Below are positions 3,754 to 59,159 of a DNA stretch of 64,000 nucleotides, piece by piece. How positions within the stretch are numbered: the first letter of the stretch is position 1; each line of letters opens with the position of its first letter. The stretch covers positions 285,969-349,968 of the forward strand of contig VMGB01000001.1 of the NCBI GenBank assembly GCA_007376295.1. Reading direction: 5' to 3'. This DNA is from Parcubacteria group bacterium Gr01-1014_13 (GTDB lineage Bacteria > Patescibacteriota > Patescibacteriia > Magasanikbacterales > GWA2-37-8). The position numbers were made by a program, and so were the translations under genes. The notes beneath the pieces were generated by a model that worked only from the letters and a program-made list of their open reading frames with translations, was not told the origin of the DNA and searched no databases.

Positions 3754-5481
3754 TTATTGAGTGGTGGTAGTTGCAGTTACTGTTACCTTGCCGGATTGAA
3801 TTACTGAATTGTCCAAATTCAGAACTCCTTCTACCCCGACCATGTTACCAACATGCAAATTGGCAAATGTCGGATTGCTTACACCAGGAACAATGAGTTG
3901 AGTATCGCCATATACTTGGGCGGTATAAACGGCGCCGGTAGAAGTCCTGAAGATAAAACTTTGGGTTGTAGTATTAATTGTTTGTATGCTTCCAGATATC
4001 GGCCCAGCTGTAGTTACTACAGAATCATCACGAACAAGAGTGGCGGTTATATTACCGCCGCTACCCATATTTCCTTGAACAACTAAGGTATCCCCTAAAG
4101 TAAAGTTGCCCAAATCAATACCTACGCCATTCTTGCTAGTCAAATCAGTATTAGCATCGACTCGGAATGTAACTGAATTAATTGGCGGAGCCAACAAGAC
4201 GCTCATTCCATTTAACGGAGGAAGGATATCTGATACTTCTACTGTCAACATGGCCGGGAGAGTTCTGCCGCTCATAGCAGTTAACTTTCCCTTAAAGCTA
4301 AAGGGCAAAGGTTGCGAAACATTTAAGACTGTTATGATGTTGGCGGTTAGGACATTTGTTCTGGTATTTAATGCGCCCTCTACCCGAACATTATCCCCAA
4401 CTTTAATATCAGCAAAAACAGAGGTGGTCATTCCAGGGACATTAAATATCGTAGATCCATGCACTGCCACATTCATTGTTGAACCATCGTCTTTGACAAG
4501 AACAAAGGTTTGGTCAAAAGGATCTACTGACTGAACGTTTCCCTTAGCCGTGCTGCTTACTACTCCAACAGAATTATCACGAACAGTTGTAGCGGTAATA
4601 TTTCCGCCAGCGTCTATATTTCCCTGCATCACTATATCATCACCCACCTTTAAATCCGCCAGAGTTATAGTTGCTCCAGAAGTTTCTGTAATCTTTGTAT
4701 TACTATCAACTTTAAAAGTTACCATATTAACCGGTTGGGCAAGCAGAGATCGCAGACTACCAGTTAGCGGAGGCAAAACACCTGTAACTTCCATCGTTAG
4801 TGAGGCTGGAAGAGTTGTGCTGCTTATAGCGGTTAATTCCCCCCTTAAGCTAAAAGGAAGCGGCTGAGGTTTTGTTACTTTAACTCTTACATGTGACGCA
4901 ACCAGGATATTTGTTCTGCTGTTAAACATTCCGGTTACCGTAGCTTGCTCACTGAACTTAAGATCGGAAAAGCTTAAAGTTTTTCCGTTAGTGCTCATAA
5001 TTTTTGTATTGCTTGTCACCTGCACAACTACCGGCAAAAGTTTGGAAGAGAAACCGGCGCGAGGCGACAAGGTAAATGTCATATCGAAAGGTTCGATGGT
5101 GCTAATGGTACCGGTTAAAGTTCTATGCTTTAACTTAAGAGATTGATCCTTTACTGATAACGCTTGCAAGATTCCATTTTCATCATAACGGCCAAATACT
5201 TGCAAAGTATCACCGGTCATAAGAGATGATAGTGAAACTTTTTCAAATGAATGGCTTAAGAAAATGGTTTTGTCAGAAACCCCTACTACTACGGTGGTAG
5301 TGGCCTGGCCTTTAACTTGAAGTGTTAATTGAGCAGGTAAAGTGGTTGAATTTACTGAGATAAGTTTGCCAGTGACTAGAGTAAGCTGCGTAGAGCTTTG
5401 AGCCATAGCTGGCGATATCATAGCCAGCGAAAGCAACATTACCAGTAATCCGGAACCTGCCTTATGAATTAAATATTTCAT
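3754..5481 (-). CDS. Secreted protein built of three ~190-aa tandem repeats (DUF5666-like beta domains?) with an N-terminal signal peptide
   Basis: N-terminus MKYLIHKAGSGLLVMLLSLAMISPAMA. The motif LPFS(L/F)(R/K)G(E/K)LTA...KVGD..V..G recurs three times across the protein. Confidence 0.6.
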   Translation of the reverse strand: MKYLIHKAGSGLLVMLLSLAMISPAMAQSSTQLTLVTGKLISVNSTTLPAQLTLQVKGQATTTVVVGVSDKTIFLSHSFEKVSLSSLMTGDTLQVFGRYDENGILQALSVKDQSLKLKHRTLTGTISTIEPFDMTFTLSPRAGFSSKLLPVVVQVTSNTKIMSTNGKTLSFSDLKFSEQATVTGMFNSRTNILVASHVRVKVTKPQPLPFSLRGELTAISSTTLPASLTMEVTGVLPPLTGSLRSLLAQPVNMVTFKVDSNTKITETSGATITLADLKVGDDIVMQGNIDAGGNITATTVRDNSVGVVSSTAKGNVQSVDPFDQTFVLVKDDGSTMNVAVHGSTIFNVPGMTTSVFADIKVGDNVRVEGALNTRTNVLTANIITVLNVSQPLPFSFKGKLTAMSGRTLPAMLTVEVSDILPPLNGMSVLLAPPINSVTFRVDANTDLTSKNGVGIDLGNFTLGDTLVVQGNMGSGGNITATLVRDDSVVTTAGPISGSIQTINTTTQSFIFRTSTGAVYTAQVYGDTQLIVPGVSNPTFANLHVGNMVGVEGVLNLDNSVIQSGKVTVTATTTTQ

Positions 5482-52377: not shown

Positions 52378-53130
52378 TCATTTTTTAGGATTTTCTGCGG
52401 CTAACTGTTTAACCTTTTGTAAAATAAAACTAGGCAGCTCTTCTGGATTAGCCAAACCAATTTTTTCAGCAAGTTCTTTTTGTATTTCTTCGGTACTACT
52501 CACCCATTTGTCCAAAAAATCGCTTTCATCGGCTAACTTTGGATAACGTTTTAACACACCATCGCGTTTAATCTTTACATCAACCAAATTCGTACCTTCG
52601 GTTATGTTATCTATATAGAACATCATTTTCTGCAACAAACTTACATTTTCTTTTTCCAGAATATCAATATCTGCTATAGAACCGATAATATCAATAATTT
52701 CCGGTTTAATTCCGTTTTTTCGCAGGGTTTCCTTGCTTACCGATTTAAATTTTTCTGAAGCTTCGGAAACTTTTCCTGATTGCCCCCTTATCGTTTCTAT
52801 TTCAAGTCTTTTATCAAAATCATGTAAGATAGCGGCTTGAATTAAAGTTTTTTTATCTTCTTCAGACAAACCCAATAAATCCGATAACGCATCGGCTGCG
52901 CCGGCTTCAGCCAAGCAGTGCCTGATAACATTGGACCAATCTTCTTGGCCGCTAGATCCTATATTTTTTACTATCTGTTCCGGAGATAAATTCTTTAGGC
53001 TTGGCAAATGTCCGCTTTCACCATGTAATTTAATTAAATTTAAATGACGCAAAGCGAGATTGGCAAAATACCGGCGAAGCTCTGTGTCGTTGGCATATTC
53101 CTCAGAATAATTTGGCTGGTTTTCTTTCAT
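52378..53130 (-). CDS. HD-domain phosphohydrolase-like protein
   Basis: AAILHDFDK HD motif. 250 aa. Confidence 0.55.
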   Translation of the reverse strand: MKENQPNYSEEYANDTELRRYFANLALRHLNLIKLHGESGHLPSLKNLSPEQIVKNIGSSGQEDWSNVIRHCLAEAGAADALSDLLGLSEEDKKTLIQAAILHDFDKRLEIETIRGQSGKVSEASEKFKSVSKETLRKNGIKPEIIDIIGSIADIDILEKENVSLLQKMMFYIDNITEGTNLVDVKIKRDGVLKRYPKLADESDFLDKWVSSTEEIQKELAEKIGLANPEELPSFILQKVKQLAAENPKK

Positions 53131-53162
53131 AAAAAATTTAAAATCTATCTCCTTAGACTATC

Positions 53163-53197
53163 AAAAAACAAGGTTTTTTACAACCTTGTTTTTTTGG
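53163..53197. terminator. Terminator (AACAAGGTT-TTTTAC-AACCTTGTT flanked by A6/T7)
   Basis: 9-bp stem. Follows the membrane-protein gene ending at 53210. Confidence 0.55.
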
Positions 53198-53209
53198 GTA
53201 ATATATAAA

Positions 53210-53626
53210 TTATAACCAAGCGCCGATTATAGCGCCGGCAGCGAGCAAGGTAACTAGCATGTTCATACTTGTCAACCAAAACATTGTTTTGTTTCCACCC
53301 CAAGCGACATCGCCAATTTTTATTGGTAAAACAAAGCCAAGCCACATAATCAATCCGGCCATCGCGCCTTTATCCCAGCCAAATTGCTCAAAACCGACAA
53401 TTATCCCGGCCAATACATAAAACATCAGCAAACTGGCCAAAAATTGCCCCACATAGCTCATCCACATCGTTTTCTTCATCCCTGCTTGCTGTTCTGGAGT
53501 CAATTTGTCCATGCCGCTGACAGCCATAAACTTTTTACCAAACAAAGGACCGTACCAAATACTGCCGATAACCATAGAAGCGACTGCGGCAGCTAATACT
53601 GCCAAATAGTTGATGTTTGCCCACAT
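53210..53626 (-). CDS. Small multi-pass membrane protein (DUF1761-like?)
   Basis: 138 aa, 4 TM. Confidence 0.45.
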   Translation of the reverse strand: MWANINYLAVLAAAVASMVIGSIWYGPLFGKKFMAVSGMDKLTPEQQAGMKKTMWMSYVGQFLASLLMFYVLAGIIVGFEQFGWDKGAMAGLIMWLGFVLPIKIGDVAWGGNKTMFWLTSMNMLVTLLAAGAIIGAWL

Positions 53627-53668
53627 ATATTATATAAATTAATAGTTAAACACTTAAACTATTATAGC

Positions 53669-53700
53669 AAAAAACAAGATTGATTACAATCTTGTTTTCG
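53669..53700 (-). terminator. Terminator of the three-gene module (AACAAGATTG-ATTA-CAATCTTGTT + T6 on the − strand)
   Basis: Perfect 10-bp stem 58 nt past the stop of the last gene. Confidence 0.6.
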
Positions 53701-53757
53701 GTCTGTGCAGGCTTGGTGGGACGCGCTTGGAGTTTATTTGGCTATTCCAACCTAAAT

Positions 53758-54477
53758 TTAAGAAGCTATTTTTATAACCGGTCTCCAGATACCGTTTAAC
53801 CGCTCAATACCCCAAAAATAATCTTTATTTGTTGTAGAATTTCCTTCGATAATCATTGCTACTATTTCTGCCTTTACCTCAACATTTTTAACACCGAGTT
53901 TAAAATTTTTAATCCCAAACCCTGCATAGCCAAGTCTTAACTCTTTGTCTAAGCAGTGTACCTGTTTTCCCGAACTTGAATTTCTTCCAACATAAACTGT
54001 ATTAGTTGCCACATCACCAAAAACCATAACGCCGTCTGGAATAACTGCACCGGCCTCATAAATAGCGTCCCATTGTTCCAATTTAAAACCCTTTGATTTT
54101 AAACCATTAACAATTTGACCAGAAAAATTTGATGTTTCATCAGATACGCTAGAGGTCAACCCGTTAGAGTTGACTACCGCAACAACTTCGTAGTTTTTGT
54201 TTATTTTTTTTGAACACTTTACGATTTCGTCTAGTAAAGTGTTATCTACTTGTCTTTCTTGATTACCAATATAAGTATTATTTTCTACTTTATTCCCTGC
54301 CACATTATCACCAGACCCATAGCTATTCTGTTCGCTAACCTTGTTACCGCTGAAATTTAAAATTTTATTTCCAACAAAAAACCACCCAATAATTGCTAAA
54401 ATTATCGTAACAATTATTGATAATAAACCAATTTTTTTATTTGTGAGCCACTTATTAAAATCTGACATAATTTGCAT
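53758..54477 (-). CDS. Hypothetical protein with one N-terminal TM helix and a ~200-aa C-terminal domain. Module gene 3
   Basis: IGLLSIIVTIILAIIGWFFVG anchor. Gly/Asn-rich linker. No family recognised. Confidence 0.5.
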   Translation of the reverse strand: MQIMSDFNKWLTNKKIGLLSIIVTIILAIIGWFFVGNKILNFSGNKVSEQNSYGSGDNVAGNKVENNTYIGNQERQVDNTLLDEIVKCSKKINKNYEVVAVVNSNGLTSSVSDETSNFSGQIVNGLKSKGFKLEQWDAIYEAGAVIPDGVMVFGDVATNTVYVGRNSSSGKQVHCLDKELRLGYAGFGIKNFKLGVKNVEVKAEIVAMIIEGNSTTNKDYFWGIERLNGIWRPVIKIAS

Positions 54478-54518
54478 CGGGGATACGAAAAATTACGAGG
54501 GGAATTTACGGGATAGGA

Positions 54519-54555
54519 CGGGCGGAAGGAGGGGTTGAGGGAGGAATTCCGCCCG
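54519..54555. repeat. GC/G-tract-rich hairpin (CGGGCGGAA[GGAGGGGTTGAGGGAGGAA]TTCCGCCCG) in the intergenic gap between module genes 2 and 3
   Basis: 9-bp GC stem with a G-tract loop containing an embedded GAATTC. Strikingly GC-rich for this genome. Confidence 0.4.
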
Positions 54556-54596
54556 CCCACTGGCGCACTTTTTACGATTTCAAGTTTTTTTCATGA

Positions 54597-56141
54597 TCAA
54601 GCCTTTGATGGTACTGGTCTGGGAGAAATATCAATGTTGTAATATAGCAATTTTTGAAATTGTTTATTCTTTTTTTTAATTTTTTCTTCTGCCTCAAAAA
54701 TTTCACCCTTTATTTCATCAATACGTAAAGAGTCATTTCTCTCCTTTGCTTTTCCGGATTTATAATGTTGAGATGTTAAATAAACTGCATAACTTGCTTT
54801 TTCTCCTATCGCATAAATTGGCAATTGTCTAGAAATACCGTGTAAATAAGCTGGAATTTTCGGCTCTTCTCCGGTCAGTGCGTCATTACATAAATTTTTA
54901 AGTTCAATTACGATTCTACAAGATCCTTTGATTAATCGAAAATCGATATACCCTCGCCCAGTCTTTACTTCTGTGTCAAAAGTCGTGTCGGGGTAATGTT
55001 GGAAAAAGGAATACGCCATACCATGAAGAAGTCGCCCTACAACAACTTCTTTGCAGTGACCAGAATTAGCTGTGCGTTTTTTTTTCCACATTCGATTCCA
55101 CCCACCTTTATACTCCATGTAGTGATTAAAACTTTCCAAAAAATTAAACAGCAAATCTTTTAAATCGGAACAGCTGTTAACTTCCTTTTTTTCTGTATTT
55201 TTAAAATAATTTTTGAAATTTTTAACAGCAAGAAACTGAAGAAGATCCATTACAAAATTGTACTCACCAGGGTCCTGTCTTTCAACCAACTCAAGATACC
55301 GTCTAATCAAACTATTTTCATCTTCCATTGCAGCATAAATTTCTTTCATCTCTATTTCATCCAAACTTTTGGTAACTATGTTTACAAAACGTTCTTTTAA
55401 AATCACGTCGTCTTTAAGGATTCCAACAATTTTACTCTTCGCGCTATCAGCGCTCGTAATAGTTTGAGCTCGCAAAAATCTTTTAGGTACTAAAATAATA
55501 GCTTCTCCGTTAAATGGGTTTCTTGGTAATTCCTCGTAGACACCTCCTGTCCATTGGAACTCTTTAAAATCAAATTGCTCTCTTACCGGTAATTCAACTC
55601 TAGGAACTCCTAATTTATCGCACTGTTCTTTTGTATATTTAATTAGGTAATCCATCAATAGGCCTGCGGAAAGATCGCTTATACCATCTGGTCCGAGCTG
55701 ATCACCAATAATGGAAAATATGGCTGGGTTAATTTGATTATCTGGGTAATTTTTTTCATCAGCGAGCTGTTTCACTAGCGTACGTTCTAAATAAAATTTA
55801 GTTATAGCGTCCGCAAACCGCTCACCTAGCCCAGCTCCTTTATTTGAACCTTCTGTATAACCAAGATAAATTTCTTTTGGCTCTTTGAACTTAAAAAATC
55901 TTTTTAATTTTATATATTCATCCGGAGTGCCTTTTGTGGTTAGAGATAGTTCATAAGCTCTTTTAAAAAAAATATTAAACCTATTAAAAAGATCTCTCTC
56001 TTCTTTTTTCCTACTCCTTTTAATTAGGAACGGGTCAATAAAAAGCGCTGAATCATACTTCAAATTTGTATCAAAAAAATCCAGGTCTTCTTCTTTGGCC
56101 CTTATACCAAATACTTGTGTAAAATGGATTGATGATGACAT
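54597..56141 (-). CDS. Uncharacterised 514-aa protein whose C-terminal region carries a PD-(D/E)xK-like nuclease signature (GYIDFRLIKGSCRIVIELK). Module gene 2
   Basis: A hydrophobic-D ... x13 ... hydrophobic-ELK arrangement near aa 385-405. The large N-terminal region matches no domain I recognise. Confidence 0.55.
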   Translation of the reverse strand: MSSSIHFTQVFGIRAKEEDLDFFDTNLKYDSALFIDPFLIKRSRKKEERDLFNRFNIFFKRAYELSLTTKGTPDEYIKLKRFFKFKEPKEIYLGYTEGSNKGAGLGERFADAITKFYLERTLVKQLADEKNYPDNQINPAIFSIIGDQLGPDGISDLSAGLLMDYLIKYTKEQCDKLGVPRVELPVREQFDFKEFQWTGGVYEELPRNPFNGEAIILVPKRFLRAQTITSADSAKSKIVGILKDDVILKERFVNIVTKSLDEIEMKEIYAAMEDENSLIRRYLELVERQDPGEYNFVMDLLQFLAVKNFKNYFKNTEKKEVNSCSDLKDLLFNFLESFNHYMEYKGGWNRMWKKKRTANSGHCKEVVVGRLLHGMAYSFFQHYPDTTFDTEVKTGRGYIDFRLIKGSCRIVIELKNLCNDALTGEEPKIPAYLHGISRQLPIYAIGEKASYAVYLTSQHYKSGKAKERNDSLRIDEIKGEIFEAEEKIKKKNKQFQKLLYYNIDISPRPVPSKA

Positions 56142-56178
56142 TTTATAGATTATTCAAAAGGGGTTGGAACCGAACTAA

Positions 56179-56541
56179 CTATTTGAATTTTTTAAAGTAG
56201 TCAGGATTTGCCATGGCTACCATTAAGACATTGTCAAAACTATATCGACCATACCCAAAGGTCTCTTCCTCAAAATTTTCTCCTTCTTCCAACTTTATAT
56301 ATTTAATATAATCAAGTATTGAATTAATTAATTTACCTCGAAATTCAATTTGAGCCTTGAACCCTTCTAAACCAAGTTCGTCTGAGTTTGTACGATTAAA
56401 TTGTTTCATGTGAGAAGCCATCTGATCGGCCTTAACATACACTTGCAACCACAAATGTTTTATTACAGTTTCCCAACGAAAGGTACGTTCTACCCATTTA
56501 ATTATAAAAATCGCCAAAATTATTATTACTAGATACCACAT
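56179..56541 (-). CDS. Small protein with an N-terminal TM helix (120 aa). Module gene 1
   Basis: MWYLVIIILAIFIIKWV anchor. TATAAT box 12 nt upstream of the start, giving a near-leaderless mRNA. Confidence 0.5.
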   Translation of the reverse strand: MWYLVIIILAIFIIKWVERTFRWETVIKHLWLQVYVKADQMASHMKQFNRTNSDELGLEGFKAQIEFRGKLINSILDYIKYIKLEEGENFEEETFGYGRYSFDNVLMVAMANPDYFKKFK

Positions 56542-56911: not shown

Positions 56912-57171
56912 AGCCGTTGTCGGGATTTGAACCCGAGACCTTTTCCTTCGCTTACACCTCTAGTTTAAATTAGAGGACTAGACTGTATCTTGAGCATGCC
57001 CTTTCGAGTTTAGCTCCCCTTGTCAGTCGTTCGGGCGTATTCACGCCACGGTCTTGACCAATATTATGGCTTTTAACCGTAATTCGGGTGACATTGCAAG
57101 ATTTCCCTTGCAATGGGCAGGAGTCACTGCGACCCACCATGGAAATGCTCTACCAACTGAGCTACAACGGC
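56912..57171 (-). tRNA. tRNA-Thr(GGT), tentative anticodon, interrupted after position 36 by a ~187-nt group-I-like intron
   Basis: Exon 1 GCCGTTGTAGCTCAGTTGGTAGAGCATTTCCATGGT (57171-57136), exon 2 AAGGAAAAGGTCTCGGGTTCAAATCCCGACAACGGCT (56948-56912). Together they form a canonical cloverleaf. Confidence 0.65.
56949..57135 (-). ncRNA. Group I intron-like insert in tRNA-Thr(GGT): R-like CGAACGACTGACAAGG, S element AAGATACAGTCTAG, 3' terminal G
   Basis: The 5' exon ends in U. The intron ends ...GTGTAAGCG followed by AA of the anticodon loop. GACTG/CAGTC pair as P7. Confidence 0.55.
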
Positions 57172-57194
57172 ATTGTGTTTTTTCTTTTTACCTG

Positions 57195-57468
57195 TGGGCA
57201 GACTAGGATTCGAACCTAGGAAGGCGTAGCCAGCTGATTTCACTAATCCAAAAGTTTCCTTATGGCGTGGACTATATCTTTACCCATATAGGGTACTCTG
57301 GTATCTAGTCTCTACGGCGCTCCCTATCCGCGGCGGATAAGGTTCCCACGGTATTAGCATAGCCCTTGCTTTAGCTTTCACCGTTATCCCAGAGAGTTCA
57401 TCCCAAGGTTACCCTTGAGAGCTGCATTTTCTACAGTCAGCCCCGTTTGACCGCTTCGGTATCTGCCC
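57195..57468 (-). tRNA. tRNA-Tyr(GTA), type II with a long variable arm, interrupted between anticodon nt 35 and 36 by a ~192-nt group-I-like intron
   Basis: Exon 1 GGGCAGATACCGAAGCGGTCAAACGGGGCTGACTGT (57468-57433), exon 2 AAATCAGCTGGCTACGCCTTCCTAGGTTCGAATCCTAGTCTGCCCA (57240-57195). Spliced loop reads CTGTAAA. Confidence 0.7.
57241..57432 (-). ncRNA. Group I intron-like insert in tRNA-Tyr: R element CCGTAGAGACTAGATACC, S element AAAGATATAGTCCACGCC, 3' terminal G
   Basis: Near-consensus group I R (..AGAGACTA..) and S (AAGATATAGTCC) elements. The upstream exon ends in U. Confidence 0.6.
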
Positions 57469-58223: not shown

Positions 58224-59159
58224 CTACACTCCCATTTTATCAATTCTATCCTTAAAACTGTTTAATTTTTGTTGTTCTGGATTAACCAATCGCAGATCGT
58301 TATATCCTTTAAGTGCCAAGTCTTTATTGCCGCATATTATAGCAATTTCTATCAATAAGTCAAGGTACTTTGGATTTTGCGATTCTAGCTCCACAGCTTG
58401 TAGTATAGACTCTACGGCTACCTCTGGTTGACCCACCCTTACTAACAGCTCGGCCAGGTGATAAAAGCGCGGTGAAAATGAATCATTGATTAAAACTGCC
58501 TGTTGGAAATACTGTATCGCCTCTTCCAAATCACCCTGCTCTTCGGCTATTTTAGCCAACTTTACTAAAACACCATCGTCATCCGGCTGCATCTTCGTCA
58601 AAAACTTATATGTTTGTCTGGCTTCTTCTATAGAATCTTTGGCTAGATAAGTATCACCTAAGCCGCGGTAAGCCGCAGCTGATTTTGGATCAACTTTTAT
58701 AGCTGAGATAAATATCTCTTCTGCCTCATCAAAATTCCCCGCTTTTAACTGTTGCTCTCCGCTAGAAATTAACTGTCCTAATTTTTGTTCGTGCTCTTCT
58801 TTATTAACTACCTTATTTTTTTGTTTAATTTTTAGAACCTGTTCGTGATGAAGCAGTCTTTCTATCTTGCCAACATAGATTCTAAACTGTAATTGCGAGA
58901 TTCTCCAAAGCTTACCAACCGGGCCTAACATTTTTCCAACTTTGGTTTTTAACAAACTACCACTTTTTTCTATACGTTTATTTATAATCTCTCTTTTCTT
59001 TTGATAAATTTTTTCTTCAGGCAAGTTATGTAAATCCAAATTGGCCAAATGCGGAAATTTACGTAAAACTAAAAACAAAATAACTGCCAAGGCGATTATA
59101 ATTATTCCTAAAAAAAGTAAATTAAGCATAAAAACAAATTTAACGGACTGCGGCCACAA
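58224..59159 (-). CDS. TPR-repeat protein with an N-terminal TM anchor
   Basis: Several 34-aa TPR-like repeats (AAAYRGLGDTYLAKDSIEEARQTY...). Start probably MLNLLFLG. Confidence 0.6.
   Translation of the reverse strand: MWPQSVKFVFMLNLLFLGIIIIALAVILFLVLRKFPHLANLDLHNLPEEKIYQKKREIINKRIEKSGSLLKTKVGKMLGPVGKLWRISQLQFRIYVGKIERLLHHEQVLKIKQKNKVVNKEEHEQKLGQLISSGEQQLKAGNFDEAEEIFISAIKVDPKSAAAYRGLGDTYLAKDSIEEARQTYKFLTKMQPDDDGVLVKLAKIAEEQGDLEEAIQYFQQAVLINDSFSPRFYHLAELLVRVGQPEVAVESILQAVELESQNPKYLDLLIEIAIICGNKDLALKGYNDLRLVNPEQQKLNSFKDRIDKMGV

Follow-up and report, generated by a model that had tools for sequence, protein, structure and literature searches.

Two neighbouring tRNA genes of Parcubacteria group bacterium Gr01-1014_13 (Patescibacteria), tRNA-Tyr(GUA) and tRNA-Thr(GGU), are split in the anticodon loop by inserts of 192 and 187 nucleotides (nt), respectively, and directly before the first of them lies an open reading frame (ORF) of 202 amino acids. 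What are these inserts, how are they related to each other, and what might the protein encoded beside them do? We addressed these questions in a 64-kilobase (kb) stretch of genomic DNA, referred to below as the window, in which the tRNA array reads, on the minus strand, tRNA-Thr(UGU), the 202-amino acid ORF, tRNA-Tyr(GUA), tRNA-Thr(GGU), rpmG and tRNA-Trp. We interpret the locus, with a probability of about 0.85, as a tRNA operon with two group I introns from distinct families together with a putative free-standing homing endonuclease gene, or else a gene for a splicing helper. An earlier sequence-only reading of this DNA had implied that the split genes were novel; however, one Tyr(GUA) intron at position 35/36 and three 'divergent' Thr(GGU) introns at 36/37 are already listed from 95 complete Patescibacteria genomes (Nakagawa et al. 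2026, PMC13011429), and the two split genes are a new instance of published kinds. What appears to be unreported is the dedicated ORF families that flank split tRNA genes on their 5' side.

Anatomy and fold of the split tRNA genes

The tRNA-Tyr(GUA) gene as called by ARAGORN spans 57468-57195 on the minus strand, to which all window coordinates below refer. Its 5' exon (57468-57433) comprises tRNA positions 1-35 and ends in U35, its intron (57432-57241) holds no ORF, and its 3' exon (57240-57195) runs from A36 to the discriminator A, the CCA not being encoded. The tRNA-Thr(GGU) gene (57171-56912, ARAGORN) is built in the same way, with a 5' exon of positions 1-36 ending in U36 (57171-57136), an ORF-less intron (57135-56949) and a 3' exon from A37 to the discriminator U (56948-56912). 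The Thr junction, 36/37, is unambiguous. For Tyr, the window by itself leaves a choice between 35/36 and 36/37, as A follows on both sides; homologous introns that start with G or C settle it at 35/36, after U35. When the exons are joined, both sequences fold into standard cloverleaves in ARAGORN (Tyr-gta with a long variable arm, and Thr-ggt). Standard tools handle the unspliced genes poorly. With its intron option, ARAGORN finds the Tyr gene in genomic DNA as i(37,192) but identifies the Thr gene wrongly, as Arg(gcg) i(35,187); without that option it reports the uninterrupted tRNAs alone and neither split gene. A search of the window with Rfam at the gathering score likewise returned uninterrupted tRNAs and no intron, the Tyr intron emerging with E-value thresholds.

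Intron-less counterparts of the locus were identified on three metagenome contigs (L001, L002 and L003) whose L33 protein is identical to that of the window. All three share the synteny but have neither the 202-amino acid ORF nor the introns. L001 has the gene order of the window (M16 peptidase, TIM, TPR protein, tRNA-Thr(UGU), tRNA-Tyr, tRNA-Thr(GGU), rpmG, tRNA-Trp). Its neighbouring genes show ~84-88% nucleotide identity to those of the window, and L001 therefore represents a related species; the TIM protein is 88% identical. In L001, tRNA-Tyr (2461-2543) and tRNA-Thr(GGU) (2549-2622) are uninterrupted, and tRNA-Thr(UGU) and tRNA-Tyr are only 13 nt apart. The predicted spliced tRNA-Tyr and tRNA-Thr(GGT) equal the intron-less genes of L001 and L002 base for base. 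The exon-intron anatomy is thus clear, and the insertions are polymorphic among relatives. A signature of co-conversion was also sought by comparing the window with L001, in which the exons are identical and the flanks ~84-96% identical, and nothing was concluded, because tRNA conservation alone explains the exon identity and makes it uninformative on this point.

By its sequence and predicted fold, the Tyr insert belongs to the canonical group I introns. It aligns end to end with the Rfam model RF00028 (Intron_gpI) at 47 bits, 3 under the gathering score of 50, with an E-value of 1e-10 when the region is searched and 8e-9 when the search covers the whole window; homologues score 49, 50.4 and 61.9 bits, the last two of which pass the gathering score. 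The predicted P1 (57436-57432/57426-57422) pairs CUGU/A, the slash marking the splice site, with UGCAG and places a U.G wobble at that site. It is followed by P2 (57420-57413/57408-57401) with a GUAA loop, P3 (57394-57389/57301-57296), P4 (57384-57379/57353-57348), P5 (57375-57374/57358-57357), P6/P6a (57347-57338/57326-57316), P7 (57310-57306/57274-57270), P8 (57295-57291/57285-57281), P9 (57264-57259/57254-57249) with a GAAA loop, P9.0 (57269-57267/57243-57241) and the terminal G (57241). L2 and L9 are both GNRA loops, and the P5 internal loop, CUAAA...UAUG, resembles the 11-nt receptor for GAAA. Since the 30 distinct homologues of this intron were gathered via the neighbouring protein and not via RNA, the conservation of their core is not a search artefact. 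In a pseudoknotted P1-P9 model of the 30 sequences, 97.1% of 1587 cells are paired and 26 of 53 pairs show compensatory changes; none of 500 shuffles reaches these values, and pairing falls to 33-42% when the partners are slid by 1-3 columns. P2, P3 (compensatory change in 4 of 6 pairs), P6a, P8 and P9 covary, P4, P7, J6/7 and J8/7 are invariant, and the splice-site U.G wobble and the terminal G are each present in 30/30 homologues. A pairing of the 5' exon with the 3' strand of P7, which RNAalifold proposed for this set, was a pseudoknot artefact and was replaced by the explicit P3/P7 structure.

The Thr insert is classed here, from comparative sequence analysis, as a divergent group I-type intron with a well-supported fold. 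Its elements are P1 (57138-57134/57120-57116; GGU/GG with CUGCC, U.G at the splice site), P2 (57115-57106/57101-57092; GAAA loop), P3 (57088-57086/57019-57017), P4 (57080-57075/57053-57048), P5 (57070-57067/57060-57057), P6 (57047-57043/57038-57034), P7 (57028-57024/56985-56981), P8 (57016-57013/56995-56992), P9 (56976-56971/56962-56957) and the terminal G (56949). Homologues were collected with an exact pattern, GACTGACAAGG and AGATACAGTC separated by 13-43 unspecified bases, derived from a 20-nt core common to the window, L020 and L029. Matches came from at least 120 metagenome stretches, and 110 among the matches listed are tRNA-Thr(GGT) genes split exactly at 36/37, with U at -1 and a terminal G, the last being part of the parsing rule and so a consistency check only. 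From 100 distinct sequences, MAFFT and RNAalifold recovered P1, P2, P4-P9 and the anticodon stem unguided. In the explicit P3/P7 structure of the same sequences, 96.0% of cells are paired and 35 of 51 pairs are compensatory; again these values exceed those of all 500 shuffles, and slid partners give 35-45% pairing. The U.G wobble occurs in 100/100 homologues and the P1 extension covaries, while P3 consists of three G-C pairs only, a compensatory U-A occurring in one case. The fold is collinear with that of group I introns (P1 with U.G, P2 with a GNRA loop, the P3/P7 pseudoknot, P4-P6, P8 and P9). The insert fits group I because of this order of elements, the U.G, the terminal G, the J8/7 sequence AAGAUA and a P4 (ACGGU/ACCGU) identical to that of the Tyr intron.

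What the sequence-only reading had said was borne out in part. Both inserts are group I-type and sit in the anticodon loop, Tyr by its RF00028 alignment and Thr by covariation in 100 homologues; the sites are 35/36 and 36/37; the exons rebuild cloverleaves, as the ARAGORN folds and the identity to intron-less relatives confirm; and the last base is U in both 5' exons and G in both inserts. The motifs it had quoted are present in the Tyr insert (CCGTAGAGACTAGATACC at 57317-57300 and AAAGATATAGTCCACGCC at 57281-57264) and in the Thr insert (CGAACGACTGACAAGG at 57033-57018 and AAGATACAGTCTAG at 56991-56978), and a P7 helix and the lack of an internal ORF were seen in both. Its statement that the introns would be among the smallest known was not upheld, and they set no size record: published bacterial tRNA introns measure 184-894 nt (PMC13011429), and the Thr-type introns parsed among the matches listed (n = 110) have a median length of 196 nt, with extremes of 169 and 286 nt. 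The shortest, at 169-170 nt below that published minimum, occur in L060 (4724-4906), L067 and L130 (4126-4309) and keep all core helices.

If the two introns are removed as their families predict, the last exon bases of the precursor would pair with the internal guide sequence to form P1, where the terminal U in its U.G wobble would mark the 5' splice site. The attack on this site would come from a free guanosine seated in the P7 pocket. The intron's own last G would then replace the free guanosine, and the freed 5' exon would attack the 3' splice site. The anticodon stem would hold the exons together, and the product would be an ordinary tRNA.

The upstream ORF and its linkage to the introns

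The ORF in front of tRNA-Tyr (TSC84966.1; 58083-57475) is annotated as 'Resolvase helix-turn-helix protein', and its stop codon lies 6 nt before the tRNA gene. It has 490 close relatives, all of ~202 amino acids and spread over many Patescibacteria lineages, whose alignment contains the invariant blocks MLYYGEGAKT..TVDFANSD, YLYCFSDQ and GVxHxRYSD. The protein carries an N-terminal helix-turn-helix (HTH) and a C-terminal domain that we regard, with moderate confidence, as LAGLIDADG-like. The motif MLYYGEGAK lies in this domain. Its G-E-G acidic residue is retained in at least 90% of the family sequences (D in one member), and from the alignment the glutamate probably occupies the position of the LAGLIDADG catalytic acid. 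The AlphaFold model is of high predicted local distance difference test score (pLDDT 91.6), and comparison with BFVD gave weak matches to proteins named LAGLIDADG or endonuclease. The ratio of non-synonymous to synonymous substitution rates (dN/dS) is 0.06-0.17, and the ORF is therefore under purifying selection.

The linkage of this ORF to the Tyr intron was determined in a protein-based scan with one genome per species, which gave 35 loci. In 32 of these, the ORF is followed within ~40 nt by the start of a tRNA-Tyr gene that carries an intron. In L038, L041 and L043, a divergent ORF subfamily reads 52-88 nt into an intron-less tRNA-Tyr. The co-occurrence of ORF and intron is far above the background, for which 95 complete Patescibacteria genomes yielded 1 Tyr intron and 3 Thr introns (PMC13011429), and no description of this linkage was found in the literature searched.

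A second, paralogous family stands before intron-bearing tRNA-Thr(GGU) genes. Full-length homology between the Thr-type and Tyr-type ORF families was detected with hhalign (probability 99.9%, E 4e-35, 31% identity), and the Thr-type family has at least 2858 members, all of them unnamed or 'hypothetical'. Six members chosen by protein alone led to 10 evaluable loci, and an intron-bearing tRNA-Thr(GGU) lies directly downstream in all 10, in most of which a TAG of the tRNA itself ends the ORF. When loci were selected by the intron instead, 88 had enough upstream sequence; the Thr-type ORF ends between -3 and +64 nt from the 5' end of tRNA-Thr(GGU) in 33 of them, lies further upstream in 9 and is lacking within 1.5 kb upstream in 46. 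The ORF overlaps the first ~10 nt of tRNA-Thr(GGU) in most of L166, L168 and L171-L174, its TAG stop falling inside the conserved GTAGCTCAG of the tRNA (~2082-2091). At E <= 1e-3, the whole superfamily has 4350 representatives in a set of 1.84 billion clusters, and some ORF copies are truncated.

Some further loci are of interest in their own right. L020 has a full Tyr-type ORF before a split tRNA-Tyr and, at ~3870-4275, a Thr-type ORF truncated to 134 amino acids that immediately precedes an intron-bearing tRNA-Thr(GGU); this looks like decay of one partner gene. An 88-amino acid GIY-YIG ORF lies between an intron-bearing tRNA-Tyr and an intron-less tRNA-Thr(GGT) in L004 and L005 (3983-4249) and in L006 (2207-2473); judged by its sequence, it would add another nuclease-type gene to the array. 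The locus also occurs in some records labelled as uncultured Gammaproteobacteria or Bdellovibrionales (L011, L012, L013, L015, L016, L020, L023, L026, L043 and L044), labels that look wrong.

That the ORF encodes a free-standing homing endonuclease is our preferred proposal, to which we give, from the analysis as a whole, nearly even odds. Its product would cut alleles that lack both ORF and intron, and repair from the allele described here would copy the ORF together with the intron ~40 base pairs away, that is, by collaborative or trans homing. The ORF-intron pattern matches this kind of homing because the gene lies outside an ORF-less intron, the two are jointly present or absent, decayed copies exist and many introns are orphaned. 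The DNA of the anticodon arm is a near-palindrome that would suit a homodimeric enzyme, a point that we infer only. More broadly and more tentatively, at a little under even odds, the ORFs may belong to a large unannotated Patescibacteria superfamily of HTH plus LAGLIDADG-like proteins whose subfamilies are each dedicated to one tRNA gene, immediately 5' of it, and which would be endonucleases recognising the palindrome-like DNA of the anticodon arm, the introns then being mobile by collaborative homing.

Several results tell against the endonuclease proposal. The predicted topology of the ORF is a-b-a-b-a-b-b-a and not the canonical abbabba; sequence searches of Pfam, PHROGs, NCBIfam and PDB sequences matched the N-terminal HTH only; hhalign of the family profile against I-CreI was negative (probability 0.7%); and Foldseek of the model against PDB gave nothing at E <= 0.001. 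A Tyr-type ORF also precedes an intron-less tRNA-Tyr in 4 of 23 evaluable loci selected by the Thr intron, which brings the number of such loci to 7 in all and argues either for a target that does not in every case coincide with the insertion site or for inactivity of some copies. Finally, ORF divergence roughly tracks that of host proteins, which fits long vertical inheritance as well as mobility; horizontal transfer, which would show as ORF identity out of step with host genes, was tested for and was not clearly indicated.

Some of these results would be expected if the ORF were no mobility enzyme but a domesticated maturase or a WhiA-like protein that binds DNA and regulates the tRNA operon, a view that leaves the introns unchanged. 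The strong purifying selection (dN/dS as above) favours it, as do the agreement between ORF and host-protein identity expected under vertical inheritance, the retention of the ORF beside intron-less tRNA-Tyr in the 7 loci, and the fact that LAGLIDADG proteins double as maturases, a possible fate of homing endonucleases (Hausner et al. 2014, PMC3984707). We nevertheless consider it somewhat unlikely. The 46 of 88 Thr-type introns without an ORF within 1.5 kb upstream make an essential helper for a single-copy tRNA improbable, unless it is encoded elsewhere, and related tRNA introns of Patescibacteria splice in vitro without protein (PMC13011429). Truncated ORF remnants, the conserved acidic residue at the catalytic position, and the joint absence of the ORF and both introns from close relatives (L001 and L002) also speak against this view.

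Other readings of the inserts

The class of the Thr insert is the point at which group I identity itself can be questioned, as it could be some other structured insertion, removed by a route that is not that of group I. The covariance-model check suggested by the sequence-only reading gave a divided answer, positive for Tyr, though under the gathering score, and negative for Thr, which reaches 14.9 bits against RF00028, misaligned and below the gathering score. Among 20 Thr homologues, 2 reach 21-23 bits and none scores higher. In addition, the Thr search pattern itself dictated P7 and portions of J8/7 and P3, and the invariance of P7 and J8/7 is therefore no evidence. Self-splicing in vitro is demonstrated for Asn and Asp introns at 35/36 only (PMC13011429), and for the Tyr and the Thr type we infer it from the family. 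These results count against our assignment. Still, another removal route for the Thr insert is very unlikely: its P1-P9 order is collinear with group I, its U.G wobble does not vary, it ends in G, its J8/7 has the sequence AAGAUA, its P4 is that of the Tyr intron and it has weak profile homology to the Tyr family. Moreover, the bacterial tRNA-intron covariance model of tFind detects this type, which groups with subgroup IA in the published tree (PMC13011429).

The sequence-only reading had taken the introns for paralogues and had seen in them a sign of mobility within the array. On such a view they would be recent paralogues, one having transposed from the neighbouring tRNA gene. The introns do occupy adjacent genes, are of similar size (192 and 187 nt) and share the same P4 and a similar J8/7. 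The comparison of the families with nhmmer profiles, however, makes such an origin highly improbable. Cross-searches between the Tyr and Thr profiles gave a weak collinear similarity (E 1e-4 to 4e-7), and within the window the Thr profile matches the Tyr intron at E 1.9 while the Tyr profile has no match to the Thr intron. P1, P2, P5, P6, P7, P8 and P9 all differ between the two introns of the window. The families also usually occur apart, each at its own tRNA and site in many genomes: tRNA-Tyr is intron-less in 27 of 29 Thr-selected loci that hold this gene, and Thr(GGU) is intron-less in 6 of 7 ORF-selected genome loci where it follows the Tyr-intron gene. Each family, furthermore, has its own paralogous partner ORF family, with only 31% identity between the two. 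On this comparative evidence the two introns are best described as members of separate, widespread Patescibacteria families, each of which, in genomes numbering dozens to hundreds, keeps to one tRNA and site.

That both loci are dead tRNA genes, with functional intron-less copies elsewhere in the genome, deserves hardly any credence. In its favour, Rfam does not recognise the Thr insert, and the search for copies, which also limits our own interpretation, took in 64 kb of a contig whose length is at least 495 kb. In that window it revealed no second Tyr or Thr(GGU) tRNA gene and no further intron copy. The exons are identical to intact orthologues and are undamaged in the 100 Thr and the 30 Tyr homologues, the two sides of the anticodon stem, which the intron separates, covary and are paired in 100%, the inserts retain a conserved ribozyme fold, and intron-bearing and intron-less copies of the same anticodon rarely coexist in one genome (PMC13011429).

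Surroundings, known systems and significance

The array begins with an unsplit tRNA-Thr(UGU) (58218-58143; Rfam tRNA, 68 bits). A candidate promoter, recognised by consensus match alone (58336-58363; TTGACT-16-TATAAT, TG-extended, 11/12), lies inside the 3' end of the TPR gene, ~118 nt before this tRNA, and from the sequence the ORF, the split tRNAs and rpmG may form a single transcription unit. The rpmG gene, encoding ribosomal protein L33 and used as the synteny anchor for the intron-less relatives, is at 56861-56706, and tRNA-Trp is at 56657-56585. Between tRNA-Trp and a phosphoribosyltransferase gene, five ORFs of 250, 138, 239, 514 and 120 amino acids occupy 52378-56541, the 514-amino acid one showing a weak PD-(D/E)XK match. 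This stretch is absent at the syntenic position in L001 and L002, where a single 128-amino acid ORF is found instead, and it may be an inserted island beside tRNA-Trp.

The classical bacterial tRNA group I introns are those of cyanobacterial tRNA-Leu(UAA) at 34/35, tRNA-fMet at 33/34 and proteobacterial tRNA-Arg and tRNA-Ile, with the Azoarcus and Anabaena ribozymes among them. Like these, the introns described here are small, ORF-less and situated within the anticodon loop, showing a U.G in P1, a G at the end, GNRA loops capping P2 and P9 and exons held by the anticodon stem, and the P5 of the Tyr intron is 11-nt-receptor-like. They differ in their host tRNAs and insertion positions.

With the types of Nakagawa et al. 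(2026) they share the phylum, the host tRNAs, the insertion positions and the size class. The Patescibacteria introns were assigned to subgroup IA and the classical ones to IC (PMC13011429). The detection behaviour is also the same, as RF00028 finds the Tyr intron and misses the Thr intron, and ARAGORN calls the latter Arg(GCG) at 34/35. RF00028 passed over the published divergent Thr introns and ARAGORN took them for Arg(GCG); the tFind model for bacterial tRNA introns was alone in finding them, and tFind detected both the Tyr and the Thr type in that survey (PMC13011429). The tool comes from Williams 2020 (bioRxiv 10.1101/2020.01.27.920355). None of the 95 genomes has both types, whereas here they occur in adjacent genes. 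The survey concluded that tRNA introns of the phylum are mostly without homing endonucleases and so rarely move, and flanking ORFs are not mentioned in it (PMC13011429).

The closest parallels to the ORF-intron pairing come from phages, in which collaborative or trans homing is known from F-CphI with the psbA intron of cyanophage S-PM2 and from mobE with the T4 nrdB intron (Hausner et al. 2014, PMC3984707; Wilson & Edgell 2009, PMC2790892). In both settings a free-standing endonuclease-type gene lies beside a gene with a group I intron that is ORF-less or has a defunct ORF, and gene and intron are jointly present or absent among relatives. Unlike in phages, the present pair is on a bacterial chromosome, the interrupted genes are tRNA genes; the protein, a putative endonuclease, has an HTH and a LAGLIDADG-like domain in place of the Endo VII or HNH domain; and the pairing has lasted across a whole phylum in two paralogous families, each with its own tRNA and intron. 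Single-domain LAGLIDADG endonucleases such as I-ShaI are active in rRNA insertions of the candidate phyla radiation (CPR) (Tsurumaki et al. 2024, PMC11270868). These share with the ORF described here the phylum, one LAGLIDADG-type domain (a homodimer being expected) and the link to group I introns, but they lie inside the rRNA insertions and match Pfam LAGLIDADG families, whereas the present ORF is outside the intron, has an N-terminal HTH and has no Pfam LAGLIDADG match.

Relative to published work, the locus adds a far larger census of Thr-type introns and the dedicated flanking gene families. With at least 120 metagenome stretches from one exact-pattern scan, the Thr-type family is far commoner than one would expect from the three cases in print. 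For annotation, it matters that both split genes are overlooked or wrongly labelled by standard tools, and a genome of this kind would score as lacking tRNA-Tyr and tRNA-Thr(GGU). If the flanking ORFs are endonucleases, the mobility machinery of these introns lies outside the region searched by the 2026 survey (PMC13011429), and active enzymes would contradict the published view of endonuclease-less, rarely moving introns. The pair would then represent, outside phages, the first cellular case of a stable split element, with the endonuclease outside and the ribozyme inside. If the ORFs are splicing helpers instead, they would represent free-standing protein cofactors for bacterial group I introns.

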